From: Alkanindiges illinoisensis DSM 15370
GTDB taxonomy: Bacteria; Pseudomonadota; Gammaproteobacteria; Pseudomonadales; Moraxellaceae
Reading direction: 5' to 3'
Assembly (NCBI RefSeq): GCF_000619845.1
Contig: NZ_JHUX01000003.1
Span: forward strand, 580,064-612,063
Length of the DNA stretch: 32,000 nt
Of the stretch, positions 8,854 to 29,758 are shown in pieces. Positions within the stretch are counted from its first letter, which is position 1. Every line of letters starts with the position of its first letter. A program made the translations under genes and the position numbers. The notes below the pieces were generated by a model. It was given only the letters and a program-made list of their open reading frames with translations, did not search any database and was not told the DNA's origin.

Positions 8854-8862
8854 TTTTTATAA

Positions 8863-8882
8863 TGGAACCAACCAGAATGGCT
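8863..8882 (+). promoter_or_regulatory. Conserved intergenic motif, copy 1 (TGGAACCAACCAGAATGGCT)
   Basis: Starts 10 nt after the stop at 8853 and about 75 nt before the next gene. Shares TGGAACC-N2-CC with seven other intergenic copies. Confidence 0.35.
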
Positions 8883-8939
8883 CGCCAAAACATCCGTTAT
8901 ACATCAAAGCTGACACAAATCTAATTAAGTGGAACTTTG

Positions 8940-9641: not shown

Positions 9642-9643
9642 TT

Positions 9644-10354
9644 ATGGCAAAGAAATTTGATGTACAACGTAGGCTGATGATCGGGCGTAAGTTTGCTTTA
9701 GCCCGTGATATGGCTGGCCTCAAGCAAGAAGAGGTGATGGTTAAAATCTTTGGGGCCAGTGGTGGACAAAAGAACCGGATCAGTGAGATCGAAAACGGTA
9801 AGACCATGCCTGATGCAGAGTTGTTTCAGGTGTTGTGTGAGCTTTATGTGGTATCTGCCGACTGGATTCTGGGTTTTACCGTAGAGCCGGAAATGGATAA
9901 AACCACGGCAACCGCTGGTATTTTATATAATAGTTTAGGAGATATGCTGACCGAATTTACTCAAGCTGCTACGGCACAAATCACAATGGCCTGCGCACGT
10001 CATATTACCTCGTTTCCCAAGGCTGACTCTGTAGTCTTACTGGAACAGGCCAAAGTACTGGTAAAAGCCTGTGGTAGTCTTAGTAGAGAGGCTTATGAAC
10101 AGATTCAGCCTGCATTAATCGGTGTCATGGAAAGTATTCGTAATTGTGACCAGAAAAATGCATTACAAATACGAAATCTGGAAATAGCCCTTGATGACGT
10201 GTACCAGCGTGAGGAAGCGGAACTACATCAAAAAATGCTGATGGATTTGGTGCTTAACCGTACTAAACGATATCCATCCACATCATTACCCAAGGCTGAT
10301 GAACCCGAAGTGCCTCAAATTGGTTTAGATTTATTTGCTGAAGAGAAGGCATAG
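9644..10354 (+). CDS. XRE-family HTH transcriptional regulator (late-regulator position)
   Basis: I place the start at ATG 9644 (MAKKFDVQRRLMIGRKFALARDMAGLKQEEV...ISEIENGKTMPDAELFQVLCELY), a typical XRE HTH. GGGAGAG lies upstream. It follows rusA, where lambdoid phages carry their late regulator. Confidence 0.7.
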   Translation: MAKKFDVQRRLMIGRKFALARDMAGLKQEEVMVKIFGASGGQKNRISEIENGKTMPDAELFQVLCELYVVSADWILGFTVEPEMDKTTATAGILYNSLGDMLTEFTQAATAQITMACARHITSFPKADSVVLLEQAKVLVKACGSLSREAYEQIQPALIGVMESIRNCDQKNALQIRNLEIALDDVYQREEAELHQKMLMDLVLNRTKRYPSTSLPKADEPEVPQIGLDLFAEEKA

Positions 10355-10362
10355 GCGGTGAT

Positions 10363-11229
10363 ATGGCAAAAATTGAGTATCCTGCCGAAGTCTGGGCACG
10401 ATTGCGCGAGGTCTGGGAAACCTCGCCCAAGATTACATGGGACAATCTCGTTAAGCAGGTCGGTGAAGAACTGGCCTGCGATATGCCGTCTGGCTCCGTA
10501 GTACGCCGCAAGTCACTGACTGAAAAATGGAAGAAACGGGCAAAGGGATTAGTCAAAAAGAACGCCCGTGAACTCAATAAAGAGATTAAAAAACTGACCA
10601 GTGATTTGACTAGTCAAAATGATGGTCATGAAGAATCACAAGACGCTGATATAGAACCAGAAACTGATGGTCAAGAACCTGTCAAAAATCAGTCAGAAAT
10701 CGTCGTAAGAAATGGTCAAAATCGGCAAAGTTATCAGGAAAAAACCAACACGCCAGTAAGTCAGCTTACTGCGGCCCTGATCATTAAGAAAAACCGTGCG
10801 CGCCTGGCTGATTTGGGTGATCTAGCAGGCGATACTATCACCAGTGTTATTCATATCCGGGATGAGGTTATAAACCTTGATCTTGAGGGGCTAGATGAAG
10901 CGGCGACAGAGTTAGCACTTAACAAAATCAAATTTAAGATGGGCCTGATTAACCAGGTGGTTGAGCTGAACATGAAGCAAAGTATCACGCTCAGCAATAT
11001 TGCCAAGGCAGAATCCATATTCTGGGGCTTGGAGCTTGAGGACCTAAAAGACCAGTCCGAAGTGCAGGCACGCCGTACAGCGGTTATTGATGACTCAGAG
11101 GCTAAACTGGCTGCTGCCAAGAAACAAATGGCACTCAAGAAGAAAGAGGCCTTTAGGCGTAAGCTGGCGATCATTGAGGCAGGGGATTACGACCCTGAAA
11201 ATGATGTGCCTGAGGAAGATGTGGCTTAA
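10363..11229 (+). CDS. Hypothetical protein: N-terminal HTH-like region, acidic linker, C-terminal coiled coil
   Basis: 288-aa ORF. The N-terminus YPAEVWARLREVWETSPKITWDNLVKQVG...VVRRKSLTEKWKKR resembles small-terminase or regulator DNA-binding heads, but the gene is about 9 kb from terL. Confidence 0.6.
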   Translation: MAKIEYPAEVWARLREVWETSPKITWDNLVKQVGEELACDMPSGSVVRRKSLTEKWKKRAKGLVKKNARELNKEIKKLTSDLTSQNDGHEESQDADIEPETDGQEPVKNQSEIVVRNGQNRQSYQEKTNTPVSQLTAALIIKKNRARLADLGDLAGDTITSVIHIRDEVINLDLEGLDEAATELALNKIKFKMGLINQVVELNMKQSITLSNIAKAESIFWGLELEDLKDQSEVQARRTAVIDDSEAKLAAAKKQMALKKKEAFRRKLAIIEAGDYDPENDVPEEDVA

Positions 11230-11234
11230 GTCAG

Positions 11235-11261
11235 TTGATTTAAAATAAGACAATGTATAGT
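11235..11261 (+). promoter_or_regulatory. Candidate sigma70-type promoter for the AT-rich membrane-protein gene
   Basis: TTGATT (11235-11240), then a 15-nt spacer (short), then TATAGT (11256-11261). Confidence 0.3.
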
Positions 11262-11272
11262 GTTTTATCTTT

Positions 11273-11280
11273 GGGGGGGG
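11273..11280 (+). repeat. Homopolymeric G8 tract immediately upstream of ATG 11287
   Basis: Read directly as ttGGGGGGGGaatccgATG. It doubles as the only SD-like element for the gene. Confidence 0.9.
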
Positions 11281-11286
11281 AATCCG

Positions 11287-12051
11287 ATGTTCAAAGATAA
11301 AACACTGGCTGAAAATGTAAGCGCTCTTTTAATAATTTATATCGTAATTTTAGGCTTAAGCTATTGCCTGTATTTTGCACTAGTTAAAGTTGGAATGCCT
11401 ACAGATGATTTTGTTGATATATCCGTTTGTGCATCTACATTGCTGGGGCCAATCATCTTACTATTCACTTTGACCGCATGGAAAGAACAGCATAATAAAT
11501 CGGTTTTAAAAGATATATCATTTGAAGGCATTAAAGACTTACTCACCATTAAAAATAGCCTAGACCTAATAAGACTTGCCAAAGATAGAATCTTTATTAC
11601 CCATGGCATTGAAGGCATTTTTCATCAGGATATTGAATTAATTTATCAAAACCATATTAAAGCTCAATCTGCCTCGTTGGATTTTCAATCAAAAATAGAA
11701 ATTTTTAAAATCTATAATATTTTTGATAAAGATATTAAGGACTTTGATTTGTTAATCAATGAATGCTTAATGGAGATTGAAGTGTTAATAATGGATATAA
11801 ATGCTTTGAATGCAACCTATGCCGAAAAAAAAGCTATGATTCATAAATATGAATCTCGATATAATCTTTTAACAACACGGGAGTTAACGTATCTGGATGT
11901 GTTAAAAGAGGATATCCAAAACTATGAAGGTACAGACATTGATGACCAGATTGAAAATTATCGAAATAATAAGTTTGAGGATGGTTTAAGTGAACTAAAA
12001 GATGTGATTGATGGATATATTCAACTTATTTCCAAGGTCACTGTGGCCTAA
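11287..12051 (+). CDS. Hypothetical 2-TM membrane protein with a helical cytoplasmic domain (accessory/moron gene)
   Basis: ATG 11287 is preferred over the track GTG at 11260. Two hydrophobic helices (LLIIYIVILGLSYCLYFALV and CASTLLGPIILLFTLTAW) precede a long K/E/D/I/N-rich helical region. The gene is very AT-rich compared with its neighbours. Confidence 0.65.
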   Translation: MFKDKTLAENVSALLIIYIVILGLSYCLYFALVKVGMPTDDFVDISVCASTLLGPIILLFTLTAWKEQHNKSVLKDISFEGIKDLLTIKNSLDLIRLAKDRIFITHGIEGIFHQDIELIYQNHIKAQSASLDFQSKIEIFKIYNIFDKDIKDFDLLINECLMEIEVLIMDINALNATYAEKKAMIHKYESRYNLLTTRELTYLDVLKEDIQNYEGTDIDDQIENYRNNKFEDGLSELKDVIDGYIQLISKVTVA

Positions 12052-12054
12052 TCC

Positions 12055-12753
12055 CTACCACTCATACTGGCCATTATCGAGCTTGTGAAAAATTTCCTGT
12101 GTGTTGATAAAGGCTACTTGTGAGGGATGGCAATTATTGACCTTTGCAGCCTGTATCGCCAGATTCATTGTGGTGTTATAGGCGTTGCTATGTTGTTTTA
12201 AGTCATCCAGCATTTTGGGAATGTATTCAAGCCGGTTGTCAGTTTTCTCAATGTATCTGCCAGTAACCTGGTAGATATGGGAAATTAGATAATCAGGGGT
12301 AAAGCGCGGTGTTTCGTCCAGCCAGTCCACAGCGGCGTCATACACTGTTTCTGATTGGGTAGCCAGTTCATTCACCAGCATCTGACAAAGTGACCGCATC
12401 ATCCAGCCGGATTCATTTTTTCTAAAATTATAATCCTCACAATAACAATAAATGATGTGTAGCTGACTAATAAACAGTGGAAACAGAATATCCACGGCAT
12501 AGGTAATTTTCTCAATCATGACAGTGCTGTTTTCAACCACGGGCTGCTGTTTTTTATAGACAATCCGTTTACCTTGGGCGGCCTGCTGCACTTCATAGAC
12601 TAAGCCCCATCCAAACGCGATATCAGGACTATCTTTGCCATTGTTATTTTCAGGTAGGATATCGTATGCAGCATCACATAATGCCATTAGCTCATCACTG
12701 GTGCCGGAAACCCGAACGCCTAAGTTATTTGGGGTCAATGAAAGCAACAGCAT
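12055..12753 (-). CDS. Hypothetical protein; the only complete - strand gene in the window (accessory/moron gene)
   Basis: 232-aa ORF with a strong reverse-strand GAGGA RBS 7 nt before its ATG. It converges on gene 11287-12051 with only 3 nt between the stop codons. No family recognised. Confidence 0.7.
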   Translation of the reverse strand: MLLLSLTPNNLGVRVSGTSDELMALCDAAYDILPENNNGKDSPDIAFGWGLVYEVQQAAQGKRIVYKKQQPVVENSTVMIEKITYAVDILFPLFISQLHIIYCYCEDYNFRKNESGWMMRSLCQMLVNELATQSETVYDAAVDWLDETPRFTPDYLISHIYQVTGRYIEKTDNRLEYIPKMLDDLKQHSNAYNTTMNLAIQAAKVNNCHPSQVAFINTQEIFHKLDNGQYEW

Positions 12754-12781
12754 TGTCTATCCTCAATTTTTTCAAGAGAAT

Positions 12782-12811
12782 ATATTAATCTGACCGGAAC
12801 TGCCATGTCTG
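12782..12811 (-). promoter_or_regulatory. Candidate sigma70-type promoter for the - strand gene
   Basis: On the reverse strand: CAGACA (12811-12806), 18-nt spacer, TAATAT (12787-12782), about 30 nt upstream of the ATG. Confidence 0.3.
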
Positions 12812-12834
12812 GATGCTTTATTGATTCAGGCACT

Positions 12835-12860
12835 ATTACCCTATGTTGAAATAGGGTAAT
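12835..12860 (+). promoter_or_regulatory. Perfect 10-bp inverted repeat ATTACCCTAT-N6-ATAGGGTAAT covering the RBS of gene 12865
   Basis: Read directly. The right arm contains the only purine-rich SD-like sequence (AGGG), and the repeat ends 5 nt before ATG 12865. Confidence 0.6.
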
Positions 12861-12864
12861 ACTC

Positions 12865-15276
12865 ATGCAAAACAATCAATCAGCCAGCGGCCTACAGTAC
12901 GATGATTTAGGTTTTATTATTGGCATGAAGCGCATGGGGCGTGATATCGATAAGATTGATATCAACGTCGAAGCCATACGCAAAATACTGGAACAGGCTG
13001 CTACAGAATTTAAAGCGATTGCTGGCCAGTCTGAGCGCCAGCAGCCCTCACTAAGTGCCTATCAGCGTGCTTTACTGGATGCCACACAACGTACGGCAGT
13101 TGATTTTGAGGAACACCTTCAACGCACCATCACACCCGTTAATCAATCATTGGTTGATATGGGTAATGCCACTGAAGAATTAATAAACCTGGTTGATCAG
13201 GTGGCAAGCCAGCAGACCAGTCCTAAGCAGGCCAATAACCGCAGTACTGCAAATAATTCGGGCAATAGACCCGGACGCAGCCGTATTACGCCAAACAGCG
13301 ACACGGTTGACATCGGTAGTACAGAATCGCTAAGACGTAACTTTAGCCGCCAGAATGCAGATAATGCACCAGGTGATGATGCAACCAGTGACCGTAGCCG
13401 TGATTCACGGGGCCGCTTTACTGGTGATGGTTCTGGTGATGGCCAGAAATCATTTTTTGCAAAAGTTGCCAAAGGGTTTGTTGGTGCAATTAAAGGGTTA
13501 ATGCCTGATTCAAAAGGGGTGGACCCGACTGTTGATGCCATTAACGAGCTGGGCACATTGTTATCACCTGTGCGCAAGGTGGCTGGCTTTGCCTTACGTC
13601 CACTATCCGGGCTATTCAAAAGCCGTAAACGCAATGAGCCTATTCCACGAGAACAGGAACAACATAACCGACGCCAGATTAAGCTATTACAGCGTATTGC
13701 CGACAATCTGAAAGGTACACGGGCAGGCAAGCTGCTGGGCGGCGCTGGCGGCCTGCTAGGTGGGTTGTTCGGTGGTGCTGGTAAAGGCTTGGGCAAGCTG
13801 CTTAAGGGTGGTGGCAAAGGCCTGCTAAAACTGTTGAAGTTTGGCCGTGGTATTCCACTGGTAGGTACCGCGCTGGCCGCCGGTGCTTCGCTGTTTGACT
13901 GGAAAAATCAAACCACTGAACAAAAGGGCGGTAGTGTGGGTTCGCTGGCTGGTGGTGCAGCTGGTGCGGCCTTAGGTAGCCTGCTGGGGCCAGTCGGTAC
14001 TATTGCCGGTGGTATGCTGGGTTCATGGGCTGGCGAGAAGCTGGGTACTGTGGTTGCACCATACGTCAAGAACTGGACGGATGATCTGACTAAGGCTGAT
14101 ATACCAGGTCGCATTGTTTCAGCGTGGAAAACCTTTACTGATGGCTTGGGTACATACTTTAAGGAAGCCTGGGACAATATTGTTGAGAAAGGCAAAGAGA
14201 TTGCCAGTGATACCAAGGATACTGTCTTTTCAATTGCAGACTGGAGCGCATCACTTCTTGATAAAGGTCTGGCTGGTATGGGTAGTAAGGATGCTCAAGA
14301 ACGGGTAAATCAGCGTGAACGTGGCGAGATTGGCTACCAGCGTAAGGGATATCAGGCCAAGACGACACAGAATGCGCCTACGCTTTGGCAAACGATGCAG
14401 GACAGCGCTAATAGTTTGATGATGCAGCCAGCTACCGGAAAATACGCGCCATTACTGGATGAAATTGCCCGAGGGGAGTCACGCAAAGGGGCGTTTGGTA
14501 CATCAGGCTATGATGCTGTTTATAGTGGTGCCACGGTTAAGCCGTCAAAGCCAATTTCACAAATGACTGTAGGCGAAGTAAAAGCCTATCAACGGCAATT
14601 AATGAAAGCCGGTTCTACATCCACTGCAGTGGGCCGCTATCAGTTTATCCATAACAAAGGTGCTTTTGCCAAGATGGCCGCCGAGGCTGGTTTAAAGGAT
14701 AGCGATATTTTTAATAATGCTGCCCAAGATAGGCTTGCCATTCATTATATGGGTGGGGCACAACAAATAGATAAGTGGATTAAAACCGGCAACCATAAGG
14801 CTTTAACTAATAAGGTTGCTGAGCAATGGGCCAGCCAGAAAAACAGTAGAGGCTTTGGGAACTATGATGGTGATGGGTTAAATACAGCCCGGCATGGCGG
14901 CGTTGCAGTCATTCGTGACCTTAGTGAGAAAATTGCAACAAATCAGGCCACTGTTCCGCAAACTAAGGCAACTGAAATCAAGCCTGCGCAAATACCAAAA
15001 GCGACCAAGCCCATTATTACCAAAGATTCCCCTGTTTATGTCTGGCGTAAACCGGTTGAGGCAAAGGCTACTCGTTCAACCACTACAACAAATCTGGCGA
15101 CTCAGCAGGCCAGCGCTGCTCCTAAAGTTGAGTCAGTCAAAGAGCGCTTATCATCACCAGCACCTAAGGAAGTGGTTGTGGTTAATCAAAATAATGATAC
15201 GATTAGCCAAAACGTGAGCAATAGGGGCCTTGCTCATGCATTTACTGGTGGGTTAGGGATGGGGAAGCATGATTAA
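12865..15276 (+). CDS. Large virion-associated / tape-measure-like protein with glycine-zipper membrane region and C-terminal lambda-R (GH104)-like lytic transglycosylase domain
   Basis: 803 aa. The middle region GKLLGGAGGLLGGLFGGAGKGLGKLLKGGGKG...GGSVGSLAGGAAGAALGSLLGPVGTIAGGMLGSWAG forms glycine zippers. The C-terminal part ...IARGESRKGAFGTSGYDAVYSG...STAVGRYQFI...LKDSDIFNNAAQDRLA parallels lambda R (...LAWSEGT...GYDVIVGG...STGAGRYQLL...LKDFSPKSQD...) as I remember it. Confidence 0.7.
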   Translation: MQNNQSASGLQYDDLGFIIGMKRMGRDIDKIDINVEAIRKILEQAATEFKAIAGQSERQQPSLSAYQRALLDATQRTAVDFEEHLQRTITPVNQSLVDMGNATEELINLVDQVASQQTSPKQANNRSTANNSGNRPGRSRITPNSDTVDIGSTESLRRNFSRQNADNAPGDDATSDRSRDSRGRFTGDGSGDGQKSFFAKVAKGFVGAIKGLMPDSKGVDPTVDAINELGTLLSPVRKVAGFALRPLSGLFKSRKRNEPIPREQEQHNRRQIKLLQRIADNLKGTRAGKLLGGAGGLLGGLFGGAGKGLGKLLKGGGKGLLKLLKFGRGIPLVGTALAAGASLFDWKNQTTEQKGGSVGSLAGGAAGAALGSLLGPVGTIAGGMLGSWAGEKLGTVVAPYVKNWTDDLTKADIPGRIVSAWKTFTDGLGTYFKEAWDNIVEKGKEIASDTKDTVFSIADWSASLLDKGLAGMGSKDAQERVNQRERGEIGYQRKGYQAKTTQNAPTLWQTMQDSANSLMMQPATGKYAPLLDEIARGESRKGAFGTSGYDAVYSGATVKPSKPISQMTVGEVKAYQRQLMKAGSTSTAVGRYQFIHNKGAFAKMAAEAGLKDSDIFNNAAQDRLAIHYMGGAQQIDKWIKTGNHKALTNKVAEQWASQKNSRGFGNYDGDGLNTARHGGVAVIRDLSEKIATNQATVPQTKATEIKPAQIPKATKPIITKDSPVYVWRKPVEAKATRSTTTTNLATQQASAAPKVESVKERLSSPAPKEVVVVNQNNDTISQNVSNRGLAHAFTGGLGMGKHD

Positions 15277-15739
15277 TACTAAAACAGTGATTTACGGTGT
15301 TTTACTTAGCAGTGTGAGTATATTGGCTCATGCTGATAATAATGTTCCACAGTTTAAGGACTATCCAGCCAAGGTATACAACGGTAAACCCGCTAAATTA
15401 TTATTGAATAATCAAACTGCAAAAGTATTTAAAACACGTTTGACCGAGGCATTAAAACAAAAACCTGTCTATGCAGGCGAATATGTTTTAGCGTCTTGGG
15501 GGTGTGGCACAGAGTGTGTATTTTATACCTTCGTCAACAAAAGAACGGGCCAAGTACTTGATAAAGGTTTTGGTGGTGAAACCGGCGAAGATATTAAGGA
15601 TTTTAAGTTAAACAGTAAGCTGTTAATCACTCGTAAATCAGACTTTGATGATAATTATAATGAGGTTGGCAGTTCTACAAATTATAGTGTCGTGAATAAT
15701 GATCAGTTTAAAGTGATTAAAGCGGTAGCATCGGAATAA
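15269..15739 (+). CDS. Secreted (periplasmic) hypothetical protein
   Basis: Sec-type signal peptide MINTKTVIYGVLLSSVSILAHA/DNN. The mature part has a WGCGTEC pair of cysteines. The start overlaps the upstream stop. Confidence 0.65.
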   Translation: MINTKTVIYGVLLSSVSILAHADNNVPQFKDYPAKVYNGKPAKLLLNNQTAKVFKTRLTEALKQKPVYAGEYVLASWGCGTECVFYTFVNKRTGQVLDKGFGGETGEDIKDFKLNSKLLITRKSDFDDNYNEVGSSTNYSVVNNDQFKVIKAVASE

Positions 15740-16452
15740 TGAATAAAAAAGTAATAATTATAACTGCCCTGATTATTGGTCTGGCAGCTTTAATCGGTGG
15801 ATATCTTTATTTTATTTATACTCAGTCCTCACAGAAGGCAAATCATCAAGAAATACTCCATACGGATGACACTGGTAGTCAGGCTGTACGTGAAACAGTC
15901 CCACAGCAAAGTGAAAATACTACACCTGATGAGTCTACAGTAAGCGAAGATTGGCAAGCCGTTCATACCGAAGAAAGCTTTATGAATACTGGTATTGCCT
16001 ACTTAAATCATAATGAGATTTTTCGCGGATTAATGTTCGGGGATTTAGAGAAAAATGCCCAAATTAAGGGAGTAGGCTTTGTTAATCAGATTTTTAAGCA
16101 AGATGGATATGATGTTGCCCTAATCAACTTGTTAAAAGACTCTGATAAAGACAAATGCAGTATTTCTTTTAATGGCTTGTCAGATAATTATGCTTTGATT
16201 GCCTTTCAGCACTCCCCTAGGGTTTTAGAAGGTGATGTAATCGCCTTTAAGGGAATGGCCGACAATATAAAGTTCTCATATAAAAATGCATCAAACATTT
16301 CAAAAGAAGTGCCGGTTATTTATGTGGCTTATTACAAGGGTGGGGCTAACCTACCAGGCCTTGAACTTGAGTTTTATACGTGTGGAACCATGTTTGGCAA
16401 GCCAGCCTCTCAAGAAGATGTAAGCCGTTTTTTAGAGAAAAATAAGTTATAA
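15739..16452 (+). CDS. Membrane-anchored hypothetical protein
   Basis: TAATG-coupled. N-terminal anchor KKVIIITALIIGLAALIGGYLYFIY, followed by a polar linker and a globular domain. Confidence 0.65.
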   Translation: MNKKVIIITALIIGLAALIGGYLYFIYTQSSQKANHQEILHTDDTGSQAVRETVPQQSENTTPDESTVSEDWQAVHTEESFMNTGIAYLNHNEIFRGLMFGDLEKNAQIKGVGFVNQIFKQDGYDVALINLLKDSDKDKCSISFNGLSDNYALIAFQHSPRVLEGDVIAFKGMADNIKFSYKNASNISKEVPVIYVAYYKGGANLPGLELEFYTCGTMFGKPASQEDVSRFLEKNKL

Positions 16453-16461
16453 CTAAACAAT

Positions 16462-16481
16462 TGGAACCTACCAGATTTAGC
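16462..16481 (+). promoter_or_regulatory. Conserved intergenic motif, copy 2 (TGGAACCTACCAGATTTAGC)
   Basis: Starts 10 nt after the stop at 16452 and 72 nt before ATG 16534. Full-consensus copy. Confidence 0.4.
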
Positions 16482-16533
16482 CAGACCTTAGATTGATACC
16501 GTGTTTGCTCAAATTTTGATTGAGTGATGCAAT

Positions 16534-17352
16534 ATGAGTTTAAATGATCTGGTTTTCTGGTTGGGCTTCATTATTGGTATTGCCCTTGTATTAATTTGCA
16601 CAGGGATTTTGCGCTATCTCAAGCCAAGTCGTACTTATGATAAACCGCCTTTTGTGCTTGAAACTTTCCCTATGCCTTCATACAGTCCATTAGAAGCACT
16701 ACGCGAAGATATCCGTAAATTGCATGGGAAATTTGATGAATTATTTAAGCCTTATGTGACCGGTTGTGAAAAATATAAACCAGGCTTAGAAGAGCTTTCT
16801 AGGAAGTGGGCAAAGCCGGAAGTTAAACCCAGTATTGTCCCTCAGACTGATTTAAAAACATCACTGGCCAAGGCTGGTTTAGATAAGCTAACACCCGTAG
16901 CAAAAACGAAAATTGCGGATCTGGATGGTGAAACCATTTATGAGGATGCAGACGGCCGCCGGGTATTGTCCCCAACTTCTGTTGAGATCAGTGGCGAGAA
17001 ATACAAGCTTTTAGCAGGCCGTACCTATATGGTTGATGTTAATGAGCTGCGTACCATTGATATTGAATTCCAGGCTGGCAACCCGGCAGTTAATGGGGTA
17101 AATGGCCTAACCAATGAATTGCTGCTGGCCATTCTTATTGATCGTACGAAGGTGCTGGATAGTGAGCAGCCTTGTGATGAAAACAAGCTGGCCTTGGATT
17201 ATATGCAGTCTGCGCTTGAGTGTTTTCAGGAACGTATAAAGGTCCAGAAACATAAGCCTATTGATAATAGCGATTTGAACGAGTTGCTTGAGCAGGCAAT
17301 AGACTTATGTAAATCTAATGATGAGATGAAAAAAGAATCAAATCAACATTGA
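16534..17352 (+). CDS. Type II membrane-anchored hypothetical protein (i-spanin-like topology only)
   Basis: N-terminal TM LVFWLGFIIGIALVLICTGIL, followed by a 240-aa largely helical, charged domain. Confidence 0.65.
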   Translation: MSLNDLVFWLGFIIGIALVLICTGILRYLKPSRTYDKPPFVLETFPMPSYSPLEALREDIRKLHGKFDELFKPYVTGCEKYKPGLEELSRKWAKPEVKPSIVPQTDLKTSLAKAGLDKLTPVAKTKIADLDGETIYEDADGRRVLSPTSVEISGEKYKLLAGRTYMVDVNELRTIDIEFQAGNPAVNGVNGLTNELLLAILIDRTKVLDSEQPCDENKLALDYMQSALECFQERIKVQKHKPIDNSDLNELLEQAIDLCKSNDEMKKESNQH

Positions 17353-17353
17353 T

Positions 17354-17373
17354 TGGAACCAGCCTCATTGATG
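17354..17373 (+). promoter_or_regulatory. Conserved intergenic motif, copy 3 (TGGAACCAGCCTCATTGATG)
   Basis: Begins 2 nt after the stop at 17352. Its first 16 nt are identical to copy 8 (30117), upstream of the capsid gene. Confidence 0.4.
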
Positions 17374-17394
17374 CCAATTTGAGCTAAGTACATT

Positions 17395-17424
17395 AGGGAC
17401 TCTTTCATAGAGTCCTTTTTATTT
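17395..17424 (+). terminator. Rho-independent terminator-like hairpin
   Basis: GGACTCT-TTCAT-AGAGTCC (7-bp stem, extendable by 2 bp), followed by TTTTTATTT. Confidence 0.6.
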
Positions 17425-17436
17425 AGGTCAAAGATT

Positions 17437-17814
17437 ATGCGTAAATTACGAATTGGTTTAATTGGTCTTATGGTTGGTTTGGCAATTACTGCATGCAGTG
17501 ATAATAACTATCACCCTACTTATAATGAAACACCAGCAACGGCACAGGCTCAACAAGGTGGCATTAATAACAATGATGTACTGGTTGCTGGTGCCGGGGC
17601 AGTAGCCGGTTATATGCTCGCCAATCGCAACAATCAGGCAAACCAGTATCACGCTCAGGATTATGGCGGTCGCTCATATCCGGCAGTCCACAAAACGGTA
17701 GTAGTGAATAAAGTGGTGAACGTATACCACAAGCCTAAACGCGCCAGTTATTTCAAGCGTTCATATTCCAGCTCACGTTCCTATAGCACCTCGCGTTCAT
17801 CCCGACGACGATAA
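17437..17814 (+). CDS. Lipoprotein with glycine-zipper segment and Ser/Arg-rich basic tail
   Basis: Lipobox LAITAC in MRKLRIGLIGLMVGLAITAC/SDNN. Glycine zipper VLVAGAGAVAGYMLA. C-terminus SYSSSRSYSTSRSSRRR. Flanked by its own upstream motif and a downstream terminator. Confidence 0.7.
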   Translation: MRKLRIGLIGLMVGLAITACSDNNYHPTYNETPATAQAQQGGINNNDVLVAGAGAVAGYMLANRNNQANQYHAQDYGGRSYPAVHKTVVVNKVVNVYHKPKRASYFKRSYSSSRSYSTSRSSRRR

Positions 17815-17817
17815 CAC

Positions 17818-17837
17818 TGGAACACGCCAGCTTTTCA
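17818..17837 (+). promoter_or_regulatory. Conserved intergenic motif, copy 4, degenerate (TGGAACACGCCAGCTTTTCA)
   Basis: Begins 4 nt after the stop at 17814. Keeps TGGAAC..GCC...TTT. Confidence 0.3.
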
Positions 17838-17858
17838 ATAAAGTATGGTCAGTAAATT

Positions 17859-17885
17859 AAGGGTTCATTGAAGGACCCTTTTTTT
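17859..17885 (+). terminator. Rho-independent terminator-like hairpin
   Basis: AAGGGTTC-ATTGAA-GGACCCTT (8-bp stem with one G-U pair) running into a T7 tract. Confidence 0.65.
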
Positions 17886-17899
17886 ATTGGACTAAAATC

Positions 17900-18046
17900 A
17901 TGCTTAAGCATTCTGTACGTCGTTCATTCCTGCAACGAGCCTTTATTGCCTTGATCAGCGTGATTGATAGGATGCAGGAAAAATTAACAACACCTACGAT
18001 AACCAAGCCACTGGAACCGCCCAGATTTAGCATAAATCCTGAGTGA
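17900..18046 (+). CDS. Possible 48-aa small ORF (below the track cutoff)
   Basis: Hand translation: MLKHSVRRSFLQRAFIALISVIDRMQEKLTTPTITKPLEPPRFSINPE*. It has no clear SD, and its 3' end contains motif copy 5, so it may not be a real gene. Confidence 0.2.
   Translation: MLKHSVRRSFLQRAFIALISVIDRMQEKLTTPTITKPLEPPRFSINPE
18012..18031 (+). promoter_or_regulatory. Conserved intergenic motif, copy 5 (TGGAACCGCCCAGATTTAGC)
   Basis: Full-consensus copy 71 nt before ATG 18083. Confidence 0.4.
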
Positions 18047-18052
18047 CACAAT

Positions 18053-18082
18053 AAGCCCTAATGAGATATTGGGGCTTTTTTT
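18053..18082 (+). terminator. Strong hairpin plus T7 tract ending exactly at the start codon of gene 18083
   Basis: AAGCCCTAAT-GAGAT-ATTGGGGCTT (10-bp stem with one G-U pair), then TTTTTTT (18076-18082) and ATG at 18083. The only SD-like GGGG lies in the 3' arm. Confidence 0.55.
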
Positions 18083-19009
18083 ATGACAACGCCAAAACCA
18101 AGGGGCAGAAAGACCAAGCCGATTACTTATAACTTGCATGACCGGGGCTGGAAACACAACGGCCCTGACCGTAGCAACGTCGATATGCAGTCCATGATTC
18201 GCTTGATCAATAGTTCCGGTGTGCAGGAACTGGTTGATGAAGGCAAATTATGGGGCTACTGCGGTCATAACATTCGCCAGCGCTATGGCATGCGGCCACC
18301 TGAAGCCATTGTCATTGAAGGCAAGATGGTTTACTTGGCACCTGCGTTTAAAACCATTGAAATTAAAGCGCATGCAAATGGTGACGTTACCCATCGTGCT
18401 GAGTTTACGACCAATGAAGCGGGTGAGTGGGCGCGTGAGCAATATCTGGCTCAGGTTGGTGGGTTTAGTACAGCGGTTAATTTTAAGCAATTTACCATGC
18501 CGAAACAGGTATCTGGTTTTTTTGGCTTTGATTATGTGCTGCAACCAAATTACACGACTAATGTTGGTGATGGCCAGCTTTATGACGGCCTGTTTTTGCC
18601 TGAGGATGTGTCAGCTGATAGTGGGGTTGCCTGTTTTGATAGTCTGACCAATGTTGAGCAGCTTGACCCGGCTAATGCTCAAATTGCCCGGATGCTAGAA
18701 CAGCAAATCTTAAGTGACATGCAGAACATCAATGCGCAATTGGGTTTGTTGCAGCATGCAGAACGTGCATATGACCATATTGAAGCCATGGCACAGCAGG
18801 AAGCGCGACGTGAACAGCGTGAGAACTTGCAGGCCCAGCGGCAGGCCGAACTGTACACGGGTATGGTTGGTGAGATTCGCTCATTTGATTCAGTGTGTGC
18901 AGAGGCAGATGAGTTGCTACAGCGCGCTATTAATCCTTATGACACCCGCACACGAACTGAACCGGCGAAGAAAAAACCCCGGCTGTTTTCATTTGGTATG
19001 CGCTCATGA
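18083..19009 (+). CDS. Hypothetical structural/morphogenesis protein (basic N-terminus, C-terminal coiled coil; scaffold-like)
   Basis: 308-aa ORF. N-terminal PKPRGRKTKP. C-terminal Q/E/R-rich coiled coil (...MAQQEARREQRENLQAQRQAELY...). Located upstream of the terminase block. Function unassigned. Confidence 0.6.
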   Translation: MTTPKPRGRKTKPITYNLHDRGWKHNGPDRSNVDMQSMIRLINSSGVQELVDEGKLWGYCGHNIRQRYGMRPPEAIVIEGKMVYLAPAFKTIEIKAHANGDVTHRAEFTTNEAGEWAREQYLAQVGGFSTAVNFKQFTMPKQVSGFFGFDYVLQPNYTTNVGDGQLYDGLFLPEDVSADSGVACFDSLTNVEQLDPANAQIARMLEQQILSDMQNINAQLGLLQHAERAYDHIEAMAQQEARREQRENLQAQRQAELYTGMVGEIRSFDSVCAEADELLQRAINPYDTRTRTEPAKKKPRLFSFGMRS

Positions 19010-19815
19010 GTGCCGCCATTGCTGATCCGCTCAAGGCCATTCAGGATGCCTGGTATAAAACGCTGATTGATTTTCGGGCGTGGTACATGCCTGAAACCCA
19101 GCAAACGGCAGAATGGAAACAACGGGTACTGGGGCATGCCATTAAATCCTGCCCGGGCCGCATGATGGATGATGCCGAGGCCATGCTTGCCGAATACCGC
19201 AAAGCCCAGAATGCAGCGGTGGCTGGCGGTGCGACTGCGTTTATGCCGGTCATGTTGACGGCTACAGCCATTGTTGACCAGCCGCCCAACGTCAGCCAAC
19301 TGCCCAATGTGCCCTATTTTGTGGATGTCATTATTTCGGGCAAGCCTGCAAAAATGCGGCTCATTCCCAAGACAGTTCGCGCACAAATCGCGTTCTTTGC
19401 TACCAATCCTCACGATGCCCGTTCTATCTGTGATCAGGTGTGTGCCTACGTTACAGATGACATCAAACGTCGTATCGCCGTGCAGTTTGATTTTGGCGAC
19501 GGGATTAAGCGGCCTAGTCCATTCACCGTACTTGAAAATGAGCTTTTCCCTACGCCTGTACCCAGTGAAGCCATCAACCTGTCTATATTCACTGTTGACG
19601 CGCAGCTGGTGGGTTATGTACCTCAGGTACTGGGCCTTGGCGGGCAGTTTGATAACACGGTGGGCAATGGATACAACCCTGACGGTTCGCCAATAGATAA
19701 GCCGCCGGTTAATGATTCAGTGGTTGTACAGGCCGATGCCTTTGACGTTGGCCATACCCGCGTGTTGGCGGATCCTGAAACTGGTATTGTGACCGTGGAG
19801 CAGCTTGATGATTAA
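19006..19815 (+). CDS. Hypothetical protein
   Basis: ATGA-coupled 269-aa ORF. No motif recognised. Confidence 0.6.
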   Translation: MSAAIADPLKAIQDAWYKTLIDFRAWYMPETQQTAEWKQRVLGHAIKSCPGRMMDDAEAMLAEYRKAQNAAVAGGATAFMPVMLTATAIVDQPPNVSQLPNVPYFVDVIISGKPAKMRLIPKTVRAQIAFFATNPHDARSICDQVCAYVTDDIKRRIAVQFDFGDGIKRPSPFTVLENELFPTPVPSEAINLSIFTVDAQLVGYVPQVLGLGGQFDNTVGNGYNPDGSPIDKPPVNDSVVVQADAFDVGHTRVLADPETGIVTVEQLDD

Positions 19816-20350
19816 GGTGACTCCCAATGAAATTAATCCGGCTGATGAGATTGTACGCATTGATAGCCGCGTCATGGGCTTTAACGGTGAACCTGTCCGT
19901 ATTCTGGCTGTTTGTTTTAAAGACACTGGGGAAATGCGGATTGAGAAAAAAGAAATTTACACCAATCTGCCGGTACCTGCGGAATTAAAGGCCAATACCA
20001 TTGTCGTGACGGACGCCATCCACCAGGTGCAAAACTGGGATATGCCGTTTAATCCTGAAAAAGACCTGGCTTCGGTTATCACGGTGTACCAGCAACGATT
20101 CCGGGCCGGCCTGATTGATATTGAAAAATCCCTCAACCGCTATAACCCGAAAACCGTGCTGCAGGTGCGTAAGGTTGATGAAAAGGGCTTAAAACAGGAA
20201 TTTGACAGCAGCAGCTTAAACAATGGTCACGTTGCGGTATTGCTCTGCGTGTGGGCCAGCCAGCGTGTTGCGATCAGCCATAGTATTACACATGCACAGG
20301 GGATAGATGCCAAAGCCATAGATACCTCGATGTTGCCTTTTAGCATCTAG
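19808..20350 (+). CDS. Hypothetical protein (small-terminase position only)
   Basis: 180-aa ORF immediately upstream of terL. The first ATG is at 19808 (track TTG at 19805). No recognisable HTH, so a TerS role is inferred from position alone. Confidence 0.55.
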   Translation: MIKVTPNEINPADEIVRIDSRVMGFNGEPVRILAVCFKDTGEMRIEKKEIYTNLPVPAELKANTIVVTDAIHQVQNWDMPFNPEKDLASVITVYQQRFRAGLIDIEKSLNRYNPKTVLQVRKVDEKGLKQEFDSSSLNNGHVAVLLCVWASQRVAISHSITHAQGIDAKAIDTSMLPFSI

Positions 20351-20358
20351 GGGGCAGC

Positions 20359-22350
20359 ATGGCGTTAAAACCCCTAAAAGACATACCTGAATGGTGGGAG
20401 CTGTGTGTACGCTACCGCTATGACATTTATGCTTTCGCGGTTGAGGCGCTGGGCATTACGCCCACATGGCAACAAGAACTACTATTTGAATCTGTCCAGT
20501 TTGATGGTAGCCGTACATCGGTTGCGTCAGGTCACGGCTGTTTTGGTAAAGGCACCAAAATCCGGCTGTTTAACGGCAAATGGAAGCGCGTTGAAAAAAT
20601 AACAATAGATGATCAGATCATGGGTAGCGATGGGATATCGCCCCGTGAGATCACCCATGTTGTGCGCGGCCAGCAGGAACTGTACCGCTTTAATTATGCC
20701 AATGGCGTCAGTCACGTTTATAACCGGTCACATATTTTGTGCCTGGTGTCGCTAGAAACAAAGAACGGCTGGAAAGCTGGCGACAAAATGGAAGTGCTAG
20801 TGTCCAAATGGCTCACATGGCCGGAAGATACCAAGCGCCAGTTTGCGGCCTACCAACTCAAGCATAAAAAATATCAGCCTGTTGCCATCACCAGTGCCAC
20901 GGCCTTAGGCGTAGGGGATTACTACGGCTTCGTGCTGGACGGTGACGCCACGTTTCTAGGCGCTGATGGCATGCTGCTACACAACACCGGTAAAACCGCC
21001 AGTGCGGGCATTGTGGCGCTCTGGCACCTACTGTTCTTTGATGAATCCATCATGATGTTTACTGCCCCGCAAATCGGGCAGCTGAAAAAACAAGTCTGGA
21101 AAGAAATCAGTATCAACCTGAGCCGCCTTAAAAGCGGCCCTTTGGCATGGCTGGCAGAATATGTCGGCTATCAGACTGAAATGGTCTACGTTAAAGGCTA
21201 TAAGGAAAAATGGCACGTCTTTGCCAAAACCGCACCGAAGCACCAGCCAACCAACTTGGCGGGGAACCATGGCGATAACTACATGGTGTGGGGTGATGAG
21301 GCCAGCGGTATTCCAGATGAAGTCTGGGACGTGGTACTGGGTGCATTAACGCATGCCGACAACCGGGCGGTGATGACATCACAGCCGACCCGTAACGCTG
21401 GCATGTTCTATGAAACACACCATGGCTTAAGTCACCGCTCAGACGGTATATGGATGGCGCTGACCTTTAATGGTGAAGAGTCGCCGCTTGTATCTGAGCA
21501 ATCCCTTGAAGAGCAGCGCCAGAAATACGGCAGCCGTGATGATGCCCAGTACAAAATTCGTGTGCTCGGTGAATTTCCTGATTTAGCCGATGAATTTTTG
21601 ATTACCAAGCGTATGTCAGAAGATATGTACGTTGGTAGCTCAATTTTTGAAGAGATTCACCAGTTTGGCTATGTGATTACCGTAGACGTCGGCGGCGGCG
21701 TGGGTCGGGATGATTCGGTTATTTGTGTGGGCAAGGTCTGGGGTGAAGATCAGTGGGGCGAGCGGGCAAGGCGGGTTGAAGTTGAAAAAATCCCGCTGTG
21801 TAAAAACAAGGACAATATTACTGAACTGTTTGGCATTATTAGTGAGCTGCTGGAAAATTATTCCAATGCTTTACTTGTGGTCGATGATAACGGCGCAGGT
21901 AAGGGTCTTGGCCAGTTGTTGCAACAGCATGGCATCTATTATTTGCCTGTGTATTGGGGCGGTGGCTGCTTTAACGAGGATAACCGCAAAGAGTATTACA
22001 ACAAGCGGGCGCTGGCCTATGTGTGCCTAAAACGTGCCATTGAGCATGGCCGATTCAAGATTAAAACCAACAAGTACAAAGTAAAGCTGCAAAACCAGAT
22101 TATTAAAATTCCCTATGGCTTTGATGAGCATTCACGCTACAAGCTGCTGGGTAAGGATGAAATGAAGCGTAAGGGTATCAAGTCGCCGGATATGGGCGAC
22201 GCGCTGGCGTTTTTCTTTCTTGAGAATGTGCATTACACCGAAGCGTACGAGAAAGCCGCGCTGGATGTGGATACACCAGAAGGACAGGAACAGGCCGCTA
22301 AAGCATCACGTTTTGAGCGATTAAGGCAGGCCGCACAAGAGCAATTATAA
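20359..22350 (+). CDS. terL: Terminase large subunit, interrupted by a mini-intein in the Walker A loop
   Basis: The exteins read ...SVASGHG/TGKTASAGIVALW..., which restores the Walker A GHGTGKT. Walker B is YMVWGDEASGI. The C-terminal part is nuclease-like (VITVDVGGGVGRDDSV...). Confidence 0.9.
   Translation: MALKPLKDIPEWWELCVRYRYDIYAFAVEALGITPTWQQELLFESVQFDGSRTSVASGHGCFGKGTKIRLFNGKWKRVEKITIDDQIMGSDGISPREITHVVRGQQELYRFNYANGVSHVYNRSHILCLVSLETKNGWKAGDKMEVLVSKWLTWPEDTKRQFAAYQLKHKKYQPVAITSATALGVGDYYGFVLDGDATFLGADGMLLHNTGKTASAGIVALWHLLFFDESIMMFTAPQIGQLKKQVWKEISINLSRLKSGPLAWLAEYVGYQTEMVYVKGYKEKWHVFAKTAPKHQPTNLAGNHGDNYMVWGDEASGIPDEVWDVVLGALTHADNRAVMTSQPTRNAGMFYETHHGLSHRSDGIWMALTFNGEESPLVSEQSLEEQRQKYGSRDDAQYKIRVLGEFPDLADEFLITKRMSEDMYVGSSIFEEIHQFGYVITVDVGGGVGRDDSVICVGKVWGEDQWGERARRVEVEKIPLCKNKDNITELFGIISELLENYSNALLVVDDNGAGKGLGQLLQQHGIYYLPVYWGGGCFNEDNRKEYYNKRALAYVCLKRAIEHGRFKIKTNKYKVKLQNQIIKIPYGFDEHSRYKLLGKDEMKRKGIKSPDMGDALAFFFLENVHYTEAYEKAALDVDTPEGQEQAAKASRFERLRQAAQEQL
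20539..20985 (+). mobile_element. 149-aa mini-intein (Hint domain, no homing-endonuclease domain) inside terL
   Basis: Starts at Cys61 (TGT 20539-20541) with block A CFGKGTKIRLFNG. Ends ...DYYGFVLDGDATFLGADGMLLHN (blocks F/G, Asn209 = 20983-20985), followed by Thr as the +1 nucleophile. Confidence 0.85.
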
Positions 22351-22386
22351 AAATATCCAATATGTAATTATAAATTTTAACATTAA

Positions 22387-22415
22387 TTTACAATCAATCA
22401 GATTTTAAGGTAAAT
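22387..22415 (+). promoter_or_regulatory. Candidate sigma70-type promoter for the TIR/Macro island
   Basis: TTTACA (22387-22392), 17-nt spacer, GTAAAT (22410-22415), in the AT-rich gap after the terL stop. Confidence 0.35.
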
Positions 22416-22432
22416 TGGTCTATAAATCTTTA

Positions 22433-23008
22433 ATGGACATAAGTATGGAATATGGACTGAGAACCCACAACTATTGTGCGTTTTATGTGGCTGAACCTTT
22501 TAACCCTTGCGCGTTAGGGGCATTCGCTACACATGATTTCTGTCATTATCAGATGTTAAAAGCATGGAAAGGAAAGGATACCACTTTCCCCTTCAGCGAT
22601 GCTCATGCTGCAACATATAGTGTGCGAGATAGTAGTGATTGGGAATCTACGCTCAAGCCTAGACTACGAAACAGACTACGCTTATCTAAAAATATTATCT
22701 TATTTTTGAGTGACTTTACTGGTAATTCAAGAGCTTTAAGAGAAGAGATTGACTATGGAATAAATACTCTAGGTCTACCCGTTATCATAATTTATCCTGA
22801 ATTTGATAATATTGATAAAATTGTTGATAAGAATAATACTTTTAGATTAGCTGTGAAAAACTTATGGGCAAAATTACCAATTCTTAGAGATTCAATGCAT
22901 AAAGTACCAACATTACATTTACCTATGAAGAAAGAAACTATTAAAGATGGATTAAGTAATAGAATGTTTATGATTAACTCTAAAGGCTCACCTGCAAAAT
23001 ATATTTAA
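22433..23008 (+). CDS. thsB: TIR-like (DUF1863/ThsB-like) protein
   Basis: ...YCAFYVAEPFNP...FPFSDAHAATYSVRDSSDWESTLKPRLRNRLRLSKNIILFLSDFTGNSRALREEIDYGINTLGLPVIIIYPEF... follows the ThsB/DUF1863 pattern (beta-strand start, RD.S.WE..LK, SK..I.L.S..T..S....EI with a conserved Glu, then ..PVI). The track ORF starts at TTG 22415; ATGs at 22433 and 22445 are alternative starts. Very AT-rich. Confidence 0.6.
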   Translation: MDISMEYGLRTHNYCAFYVAEPFNPCALGAFATHDFCHYQMLKAWKGKDTTFPFSDAHAATYSVRDSSDWESTLKPRLRNRLRLSKNIILFLSDFTGNSRALREEIDYGINTLGLPVIIIYPEFDNIDKIVDKNNTFRLAVKNLWAKLPILRDSMHKVPTLHLPMKKETIKDGLSNRMFMINSKGSPAKYI

Positions 23009-23019
23009 GAAGTTCACTT

Positions 23020-23859
23020 ATGGAAAATAAAGTTAAATTTTACGATAAAAAATTAATTGACGAGTTTTTGGTAAGAATTAGTACGATAAGTACGATTTTA
23101 TCCTTGGTGCTTATATTTATTTCAATTCCTGAGCAAATTAAAATTGCTTTTGGTGGAATATTTATTTTAGTTTTAATATTTATATATCAAAGAAGCTGGA
23201 GGGAAGCTAATGCTTTAAAAGATATTACTGTAAAAATTGATGAAAGTGATGTTAATATTAAAGTTGGTGATCTATTTAAAGAACCTGATTATAAAGTTAT
23301 AAGTTTTAATGAATATTTTGATACAGTAGTTGATGAGGTCTTAGTTAATGAGAGGTCTATTAATGGTATCTTTCTTAAAGAACATATAAGAATATCAATA
23401 GATGAATTAGATAATAAAATCAAAAATTATCCATTTGAGCAAAACGAAATAATTGGTAGTAATCAAAACCGTCCTTATGGAAAGAAAACTAAATATAAAA
23501 TCGGAACGATATTTGTTTTTGAGGATTATATTTTAACCGCTTTTTCAAAGTTTGATGAGCATAATAGAGCTTACCTAACGATGCCTGAATACCTTGAATT
23601 TTTAATAAATTTCTGGGATAAGGTTAATAAGGTATATGCACAAAAAAGTGTATCAGTACCTATATTTGGTTCTGGTATTACACGAATTAAGGAACATAAA
23701 AACATAAGTGATGAGGAATTACTTAAGATTATGATCTGGACTTTTAAAATTAGTGAAATGCGCTTTAAGTATCCTGCTAAGTTGTCCATAATTATTCATA
23801 ATGCAAAAATTAATCAAATTAATTTATTGGAAATCAAAAACACTGCAAATAGTCTTTAG
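23020..23859 (+). CDS. thsA: 2-TM protein with C-terminal Macro-like domain (type II ThsA-like effector)
   Basis: Two N-terminal TM helices (ISTISTILSLVLIFISI and IAFGGIFILVLIFIY). They are followed by NIKVGDLFKEPDYKVISFNEYFDT...SINGIF... and ...VSVPIFGSGITRI..., which parallel the Macro-domain motifs (GDIt..vDaIVNaaN...; ia.PligtGi.g). Starts 11 nt after the TIR-like gene. Confidence 0.5.
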   Translation: MENKVKFYDKKLIDEFLVRISTISTILSLVLIFISIPEQIKIAFGGIFILVLIFIYQRSWREANALKDITVKIDESDVNIKVGDLFKEPDYKVISFNEYFDTVVDEVLVNERSINGIFLKEHIRISIDELDNKIKNYPFEQNEIIGSNQNRPYGKKTKYKIGTIFVFEDYILTAFSKFDEHNRAYLTMPEYLEFLINFWDKVNKVYAQKSVSVPIFGSGITRIKEHKNISDEELLKIMIWTFKISEMRFKYPAKLSIIIHNAKINQINLLEIKNTANSL

Positions 23860-23875
23860 ATTTAATTATTACTTA

Positions 23876-23895
23876 TGGAACCTGCCTAAATCCTT
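23876..23895 (+). promoter_or_regulatory. Conserved intergenic motif, copy 6 (TGGAACCTGCCTAAATCCTT)
   Basis: Lies at the right edge of the AT-rich island, 67 nt before the tail-fibre ATG at 23943. Confidence 0.35.
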
Positions 23896-23942
23896 GTGTT
23901 TGGGTGGTTCTATCATTGCCATAGTGAATAAATGGGTGAGCT

Positions 23943-25546: not shown

Positions 25547-25548
25547 CA

Positions 25549-29709: not shown

Positions 29710-29758
29710 TGTCTGCTGTAACTGCATAATAACCATACTTAATACAGGTAGAACAGTA

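Follow-up and report, generated by a model that had tools for sequence, protein, structure and literature searches.

The stretch of DNA analysed here (the window; 32,000 nucleotides of contig NZ_JHUX01000003.1 of Alkanindiges illinoisensis DSM 15370) is that of a lambdoid-style temperate phage, and within it we describe a short intergenic element, built around the hexamer TGGAAC, that recurs in front of its genes. From left to right the window encodes an immunity region with cro-like and cII-like genes, replication genes (primosomal, DnaC-like), a RusA-like gene, a gene for an XRE-type helix-turn-helix (HTH) protein, a gene for a protein of 288 amino acids (aa; the 10363 gene, named after its start), an 803-aa lysozyme-like gene, small accessory genes, and packaging, tail-fibre and head genes, nearly all of them on the + strand. 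Acinetobacter prophages are related to this phage, with about 55% protein identity. Among deposited phages only vB_AbaM_ABMM1 (75.7 kb, temperate; hereafter ABMM1) is related, and a DNA-similarity search of deposited phages returned the terminase gene of ABMM1 alone. Early-region proteins of the window phage are not conserved in ABMM1, and the interval between the lysozyme-like gene and the packaging genes is variable among relatives.

Copies and anatomy of the TGGAAC element

A sequence-only reading of the window had described a motif of 20 nucleotides (nt), TGGAACC-N2-CC-N3-TTTAGC, in eight copies located in + strand intergenic gaps. We found this recurrence to be real. The heptamer TGGAACC occurred nine times in the window, at 8863, 9064, 16383, 16462, 17354, 18012, 23876, 29690 and 30117, on the + strand only and never on the - strand, and the 20-mer was matched four times (0.83 expected), three of them without mismatch (16462, 18012 and 30117) and one with three mismatches (17354); none of 100 shuffles reached four. 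All eight positions given before were correct, except that the copy at 17818 reads TGGAACA and not TGGAACC. Seven of the nine heptamers did fall within intergenic DNA as described, which amounts to about 1.9 kb rather than the 1.3 kb assumed, and those at 9064 and 16383 are intragenic and lack the remainder of the element. The degenerate copy CGGAAC at 12795 does precede gene 12865 at a similar spacing (70 nt), and TGGAACCAGCCTCATT is indeed common to copies 17354 and 30117. The fixed distance between box and start codon also held, with a range of 67-83 nt instead of 67-86 nt: 74, 70, 72, 83, 83, 71, 67, 69 and 83 nt for the boxes at 8863, 12795, 16462, 17354, 17818, 18012, 23876, 29690 and 30117, respectively, if 29759 is taken as the start after 29690 and the doubtful 48-codon open reading frame (ORF) at 17901 as that after 17818.

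An alignment of 58 non-redundant sites, anchored on TGGAAC with its T as position 0, showed a second conserved block at +36 to +47 that had gone unnoticed. The A-11 and T-7 pair of a -10 hexamer (A at +36 and T at +40, hexamer offset +35) was present in 38 of the 58 sites, compared to 0-10 sites at other offsets. TG at +32/+33, corresponding to the extended -10 positions -15/-14, was found in 20/58 sites versus a mean of 3.1, and within the window at copies 16462, 18012 and 30117. A pyrimidine-purine step at +46/+47, the expected start position about 7 nt past the hexamer, was found in 32/58 sites versus a mean of 13.6. With the hexamer at -12 to -7, TGGAAC comes to lie at -47 to -42. Apart from a weak preference for C at +10 and A at +13/+14, the CC-N3-TTTAGC half was not conserved, and the full consensus, although correctly reported for 16462, 18012 and 30117, is retained across the family only in its TGGAAC core. 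Judged from this alignment, the functional unit is TGGAAC-N29-nAnnnT and not the earlier 20-mer.

We then searched the window for TGGAAC-N30-A-N3-T and obtained seven matches (1.18 expected; 0/100 shuffles reached seven), all of them on the + strand and intergenic, with none on the - strand and none among the 13 TGGAAC copies in coding DNA. Both comparisons had been named as checks in the sequence-only reading. Seven of the nine window copies listed in Table 1 fit the pattern exactly, and the remaining two, 8863 and 12795, come near to it, the latter with its hexamer 1 nt farther away.

A -35 element was not found. Matches to TTGACA at 16-18 nt spacing were mostly 1-2 of 6 positions, under the control windows, and a scan for canonical sigma70 promoters showed no enrichment and no hit at the motif sites. 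The earlier statement that the motif matches neither sigma70 nor sigma54 geometry holds for sigma54 but is incomplete for sigma70, since an extended -10 sits 29 nt 3' of TGGAAC and the -35 alone is missing. A sigma54 promoter was rejected because G occupies +13 in a single site of 58 and TTGC is lacking at the required spacing (GG and GC 10 nt apart, as in TGGCAC-N5-TTGC). Likewise rejected were the geometry of extracytoplasmic function (ECF) sigma factors, for which GGAAC is present yet the information content at +22 to +28 is at most 0.13 bit, and a T4 MotA-type middle promoter, for which a box centred at -30 and 11-13 nt from the -10 is expected and 29 nt were found. A palindromic reading, TGG-N6-CCA with its centre at -41.5, was set aside as well, CCA at +9 being present in 9/58 sites that are largely the window's own copies. 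At the RNA level, Rfam gave no match at or above gathering score anywhere in the window, and no pairing partner for TGGAAC was seen by eye in the downstream sequence.

Table 1. Predicted TGGAAC sites, hairpins and associated features of the window (all coordinates are those of the window)
Feature	Position (strand)	Details
Promoter before RusA-like/HTH/10363 operon	8863-8903 (+)	TGGAAC 8863-8868; -10-like TATACA 8898-8903, without T at -7; start 8937
Degenerate copy before 803-aa lysozyme-like gene 12865	12795-12836 (+)	CGGAAC 12795-12800; CACTAT 12831-12836; spacing 30
Promoter before 16534-17352	16462-16502 (+)	TGGAAC 16462-16467; TG 16494-16495; -10 TACCGT 16497-16502
Promoter before lipoprotein-like gene 17437-17814	17354-17394 (+)	TGGAAC 17354-17359; -10 TACATT 17389-17394
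Promoter-like copy	17818-17858 (+)	TGGAACA 17818; -10 TAAATT 17853-17858; followed by doubtful 48-codon ORF 17901-18047
Promoter of packaging/late operon	18012-18052 (+)	TGGAAC 18012-18017; TG 18044-18045; -10 CACAAT 18047-18052; operon from 18083 onward, including large terminase gene 20359
Promoter before tail-fibre gene 23943	23876-23916 (+)	TGGAAC 23876-23881; -10 TATCAT 23911-23916; orthologous site in relatives
Promoter before 100-aa gene 29759-30061	29690-29730 (+)	TGGAAC 29690-29695; -10 CATAAT 29725-29730
Promoter before 591-aa head gene 30200	30117-30157 (+)	TGGAAC 30117-30122; TG 30149-30150; -10 CATTCT 30152-30157
Hairpin and T-run	17395-17417 (+)	begins 1 nt past -10 hexamer; predicted start about 17401 in its 5' arm
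Hairpin and T-run	17859-17880 (+)	directly 3' of -10 hexamer of 17818 copy
Hairpin and T-run	18053-18077 (+)	AAGCCCTAAT...ATTGGGGCTT; conserved; abuts ATG 18083
Hairpin without T-run	23915-23950 (+)	pairs tail-fibre start codon 23943; 5' arm covers predicted start about 23923
Hairpin and T-run	30081-30102 (+)	GGCGC...GCGCC; closes preceding unit, upstream of 30117 box; read from sequence
RusA-like gene	8937-9641 (+)	first gene of conserved module; basic N-terminal extension of about 110 aa
XRE/cI-type HTH gene	9644-10354 (+)	N-terminal HTH (Pfam HTH_19/HTH_3), then helical C-terminal domain
10363 gene (288 aa)	10363-11229 (+)	predicted three-helix HTH-like N-terminal domain, disordered linker, three long helices
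Operator-like repeats	within 1-362	TTAGGAAATCCTAA, TTAGGAATGCCTAT, TAAGGATTGCCTAATA; between leftward ORF end and cro-like gene 363-638

Some of the sites can be followed into related phages. Homologues of the lysozyme-like gene in relatives are preceded by a true TGGAAC (e.g. position 503 of related locus L006), the site orthologous to 18012 is kept in 14 relatives, and the 100-aa gene 29759-30061 has a homologue in ABMM1. ORF 17901-18047, within which the 18012 box lies, is a doubtful gene without a clear ribosome-binding site; the promoter and terminator of the 17818 unit might be remnants of a lost gene. Positions 16449-16481 and 17999-18031 form a 33-nt direct repeat (82% identity) that comprises two TGGAAC promoters, each with 13 nt of upstream sequence, and flanks a 1.55-kb block of small accessory genes (16534-17352, 17437-17814 and 17901-18047). 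This arrangement suggests cassette gain via recombination between promoter copies.

Conservation, hairpins and the candidate regulator module

In close relatives TGGAAC was found 10-16 times per 20 kb on the + strand versus 0-4 times on the - strand; this bias was not seen in the three related loci that are most divergent or truncated. TGGAAC was the top-enriched intergenic hexamer of the window and 16 non-duplicate related loci taken together (79 copies on the + strand versus 3 on the - strand, 10.5 expected). In the relatives the next + strand start codon follows an intergenic copy at 53-91 nt, in most cases 66-73 nt, and the preceding stop codon is often only 2-17 nt away. The hexamer is nearly invariant, with 63 exact copies 60-95 nt before starts versus about 15 single-mismatch variants, the latter mostly probable noise. 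In ABMM1 about 15 copies precede late and structural genes, at 67-84 nt from their annotated starts, and the RusA gene is likewise preceded by the box; the element can thus be regarded as kept in related phages, both Acinetobacter prophages and ABMM1. In 57 full-length loci out of 77 further loci that we analysed (1.45 Mb), the 7 kb occupied by early genes were almost free of the element, which was first seen just before the RusA-like gene and therefore marks a delayed or late gene class. We found no description of the motif or of Acinetobacter prophage late promoters in the literature, and the published description of ABMM1 does not mention promoters.

Several sites are directly followed by potential RNA hairpins. 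Those at 17395-17417, 17859-17880 and 18053-18077, each with a T-run, were the top three terminator-like sites in the region 8000-27000 and have the properties of intrinsic terminators, in agreement with the earlier observation that such structures follow several copies. Across the family a T-run hairpin follows about one third of the sites, with none at 8863, 16462 and 29690. Stable stems begin at +41 in 12 sites, with a main cluster at +36 to +43, which places them at about -6, overlapping the hexamer or right behind it. The predicted start (about +47) would consequently lie inside the 5' arm of the three window terminators and of the 23915-23950 hairpin, which makes the role in antitermination that had been considered for these structures less likely. 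In the 18053-18077 hairpin all nine pairs are kept in most of 15 sequences, with few cells mismatched or gapped. Changes that keep the pairing are one-sided only and include U-G wobbles possible just in the + strand RNA, so that covariation support for this hairpin is weak. In the 23915-23950 hairpin the Shine-Dalgarno-like GGGTGA sits in the loop, and its equivalent in relatives is formed by ATAGCCATAG...CTATGGCTAT. As the simplest reading, the hairpins might act as terminators or translation blocks for read-through transcripts.

Outside the structural genes, only the RusA-like, HTH, 10363 and lysozyme-like proteins are conserved with ABMM1, and the four genes occur all together in 72 of the 77 loci. 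The products of 9644-10354 and 10363-11229, named previously as candidate regulators, thus both belong to the sole non-structural module that is conserved along with the motif. The homologues of the HTH protein begin at MAKK, by which its start is most likely 9644 and not 9617, and the gene then does not overlap with the RusA-like gene. Best structural matches of its HTH domain in Foldseek were ImmR, C.BclI and P22 c2 (target-normalised template modelling scores of 0.75-0.89), and beyond the N-terminal XRE domain there was no match to known structures. For the 10363 product the structure prediction is of modest confidence (mean predicted local distance difference test score of 66). No relative of this protein was detected in Pfam, including a relaxed search, or in the PDB by sequence and profile searches; in Foldseek it matched generic coiled coils, HelD and DksA among them, at E-values no better than 0.26, which we did not take as evidence. 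Relatives of the 10363 family were detected in Acinetobacter only. Because the HTH and 10363 genes are always adjacent and never found apart, the two candidates are inseparable by co-occurrence. We rank the HTH protein as the first candidate activator, with the 10363 protein as candidate partner or alternative.

Regarding the RusA-like protein, a match to PHROG family 9036 spans nearly its whole length, including the N-terminal extension. The near-constant linkage of its gene with the HTH and 10363 genes raises the question of a role beyond Holliday junction resolution. Upstream of the module, Acinetobacter baumannii prophages and ABMM1 carry a terminator followed by a pair of TGGAAC boxes spaced 43 nt apart (at 8484 and 8527 in locus L024 and at 19516 and 19559 in L023), the first of which has AATAAT at +35. 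In some relatives the RusA-like gene abuts the upstream gene without a box, which fits priming of the module by early transcription.

A probable activator-dependent late promoter and its alternatives

The earlier proposal of a phage-specific late promoter or phage-activator site is supported by the comparisons above, as the element is strand-specific, intergenic, at fixed distance from starts, absent from early genes and conserved in the family. Its status as a promoter element is well supported by these comparative statistics; the start site, the dependence on and identity of an activator, and the role of the hairpins are inferred. We consider it fairly likely that every copy represents the upstream box of a sigma70 promoter that is active late (post-replication), has no -35 and responds to a predicted phage activator. 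Host sigma70 RNA polymerase would use the -10 hexamer, often extended by TGn, 29 nt after TGGAAC and would start transcription about 7 nt past the hexamer, while the activator would bind TGGAAC and recruit polymerase in place of the -35 contact. The RusA-like/HTH/10363 module would encode this activator, and our first choice within it is the XRE-type HTH protein because of its cI/C-type fold: sigma70 polymerase is activated by cI and C proteins whose sites have their centre near -42. The 10363 protein may be a partner of the HTH protein or an alternative to it. Transcripts from the box's own promoter would lack the 5' arm of the hairpin and escape it, whereas read-through transcripts would be terminated at 17395, 17859 and 18053, or have their start codon paired at 23915.

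Several observations weigh against this reading. In the 77 further loci the two-part pattern occurred 310 times on the + strand versus 8 times on the - strand, but many of these loci are near-duplicates, and at least 47 of the 310 + strand matches go back to a single site within the coding sequence of the 10363 homologue, at which conserved W-N codons spell TGGAAC. Moreover, the module that is supposed to supply the activator is itself located behind a TGGAAC promoter, in the window as well as in most relatives, and therefore either positive feedback primed by leaky read-through or another factor would be required. Lastly, XRE-type dimers usually bind palindromes, and the box is asymmetric and invariant, with a matching right half (CCA at +9) in just 9/58 sites. 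As to the intragenic site, in L024 and L025 it is found at 10034, near the N-terminus of the 10363 homologue, with TAAGAT at +35, and the window gene is without it. It could be a coincidence or an internal or autoregulatory site.

A related explanation gives the central role to the 10363 protein. According to this, the Acinetobacter-only 10363 family, alone or together with the HTH protein, would represent a new type of promoter-recognition factor whose N-terminal HTH-like domain reads TGGAAC about one helical turn upstream of the -35 position and whose long helices hold RNA polymerase, so that it replaces sigma region 4 rather than acting as a dimeric activator. The embedded terminators would make the late units strictly factor-dependent. 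We regard this as possible, albeit with a low probability.

In contrast to promoter activation, antitermination would make TGGAAC the DNA or RNA loading site of a phage antiterminator by which polymerase, arriving from upstream or starting at the box promoter, passes downstream terminators. A terminator-like hairpin lies at fixed distance downstream of three window copies and of many copies in the family, the boxes lie 2-17 nt past the preceding stop codon, and the candidate regulators hold the position of the lambdoid Q gene, just after the RusA gene. In addition, a -10-like sequence can serve as a sigma70-dependent pause site, as in lambda Q. However, the T-run hairpin is confined to about one third of the sites and is missing at 8863, 16462 and 29690, the terminator near 30117 is upstream of the box, and the 23915 hairpin has no T-run and pairs a start codon. 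The TG, A-11, T-7 and pyrimidine-purine signals fit initiation, and sigma70 pausing kilobases from a promoter would be unlikely. A Q (qut) system consists of one late promoter followed by a terminator, whereas nine sites are present here. PHROG and Pfam scans of the window proteins revealed no antitermination family, although Q, N, RfaH and NusG were not searched by name. On balance we consider antitermination unlikely.

Quite unlikely in our view is recognition of TGGAAC as a -35-type element by a dedicated sigma factor, be it ECF-like and of the host or a sigma-like protein of the phage. GGAAC is the classical ECF -35 core, an invariant asymmetric hexamer is what a single sigma domain would be expected to read, and the N-terminal domain of the 10363 protein is a small predicted three-helix HTH-like domain. 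Yet nothing is conserved 16-18 nt downstream (+22 to +28), where the ECF -10 should be, and the partner block at 29 nt would be beyond the usual spacing of regions 2 and 4. The scanned window proteins contained no sigma domain, and the spacing of sigma54 elements is likewise not given, with G at +13 in 1/58 sites.

That a host transcription factor reads TGGAAC, and the phage borrows the signal of a host regulon, seems improbable to us. Such a factor would account for the box in front of the supposed activator module and for the lack of conservation of early regions between phages sharing the box, but not for the restriction of the box to post-replication genes, its absence from early genes and its constant co-occurrence with the conserved HTH/10363 module. 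Very improbable, finally, is that the repeats are mainly recombination boundaries of accessory cassettes with incidental promoter activity: the 33-nt repeat around the accessory block and the variable lysozyme-to-packaging region would fit this, but the box is also found at orthologous core positions (packaging, tail-fibre and head genes), and neither the fixed 29-nt spacing to the -10 nor the fixed start-codon distance would be explained.

Besides the element and the module, some further features were found. The operator-like repeats in the first 362 nt, together with the cro-like gene 363-638 and the cII-like gene 708-1178, are the immunity switch of the phage. A single gene, 12055-12753 (DUF6904), is encoded on the - strand; it separates the regulator module from the lysozyme-like gene and resembles an accessory insertion. 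Two small early ORFs, 1175-1369 (64 aa) and 4810-4992 (60 aa), have a high content of Cys and His and may encode zinc-binding proteins; neither has a family match or an ABMM1 homologue. ABMM1 contains in its structural region a single ORF of 3451 aa that is annotated as hypothetical (locus L022, 16609-26964).

Significance and comparison with known systems

The prophage family described here is very common in Acinetobacter baumannii, with one variant of the 10363 family present in 7634 blocks of public assemblies, and ABMM1 is the sole cultured phage with a gene of this family. The signature TGGAAC-N29-nAnnnT maps the late transcription units of these prophages and flags accessory genes that are wired into the lytic programme, and it reduces the candidates for the late-gene switch to two uncharacterised proteins. 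It would aid the prediction of prophage induction and could supply tightly phage-dependent promoters for Acinetobacter genetics and the engineering of temperate phages. If confirmed, the promoter-embedded hairpins would represent a compact means to shield transcription units against read-through.

Among known systems, the promoters controlled by the Mor and C activators of phage Mu resemble the predicted arrangement: they have a usable -10 and no functional -35, the binding site of the activator overlaps the -35 position or adjoins it upstream (the Mor site is centred at about -43.5), and several late units share a box. The TGGAAC hexamer is centred at -44.5 (-41.5 if read as TGG-N6-CCA). Mor and C sites are, however, dyads for dimers of a small Mor/C-family protein, whereas the box described here is an asymmetric invariant hexamer with weak symmetry (CCA in 9/58 sites), and no Mor/C-family protein was found in PHROG and Pfam scans of the window proteins. 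The lambda cI protein at PRM and the C proteins resemble the predicted system in the HTH fold of the 9644-10354 product and in the centre of TGG-N6-CCA at -41.5. They differ in their clear palindromic operators, compared to a weak right half here, and the candidate protein has a long helical C-terminal domain without known relative.

In T4 middle promoters (MotA/AsiA, 'sigma appropriation') the -35 of a sigma70-type promoter is replaced by an asymmetric box of about 9 base pairs that a single protein reads, similar to the role predicted for TGGAAC. The centre of the MotA box lies at -30 and some 12 nt separate it from the -10, compared to -44.5 and 29 nt here, and homologues of MotA and AsiA did not turn up in the PHROG or Pfam scans. 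The -35 of ECF sigma factors has the same GGAAC core, but here the partner is 29 nt off and resembles a sigma70 -10, and a conserved -10 at 16-17 nt is lacking. In P2 and P4, Ogr and Delta serve several late operons whose weak promoters each have a single conserved activator site upstream, as predicted for the window. The Ogr site, TGT-N12-ACA at about -55, is bound by a zinc-finger protein, and TGGAAC differs from it in sequence as well as position. Common to Mu Mor/C, the cI and C proteins, T4 MotA and P2 Ogr is the logic that a phage factor substitutes for the missing -35 contact at several late units. Judged by its predicted anatomy, the TGGAAC element is of this activator-dependent kind of phage late promoter, but it falls outside each of these families by sequence, position or protein.

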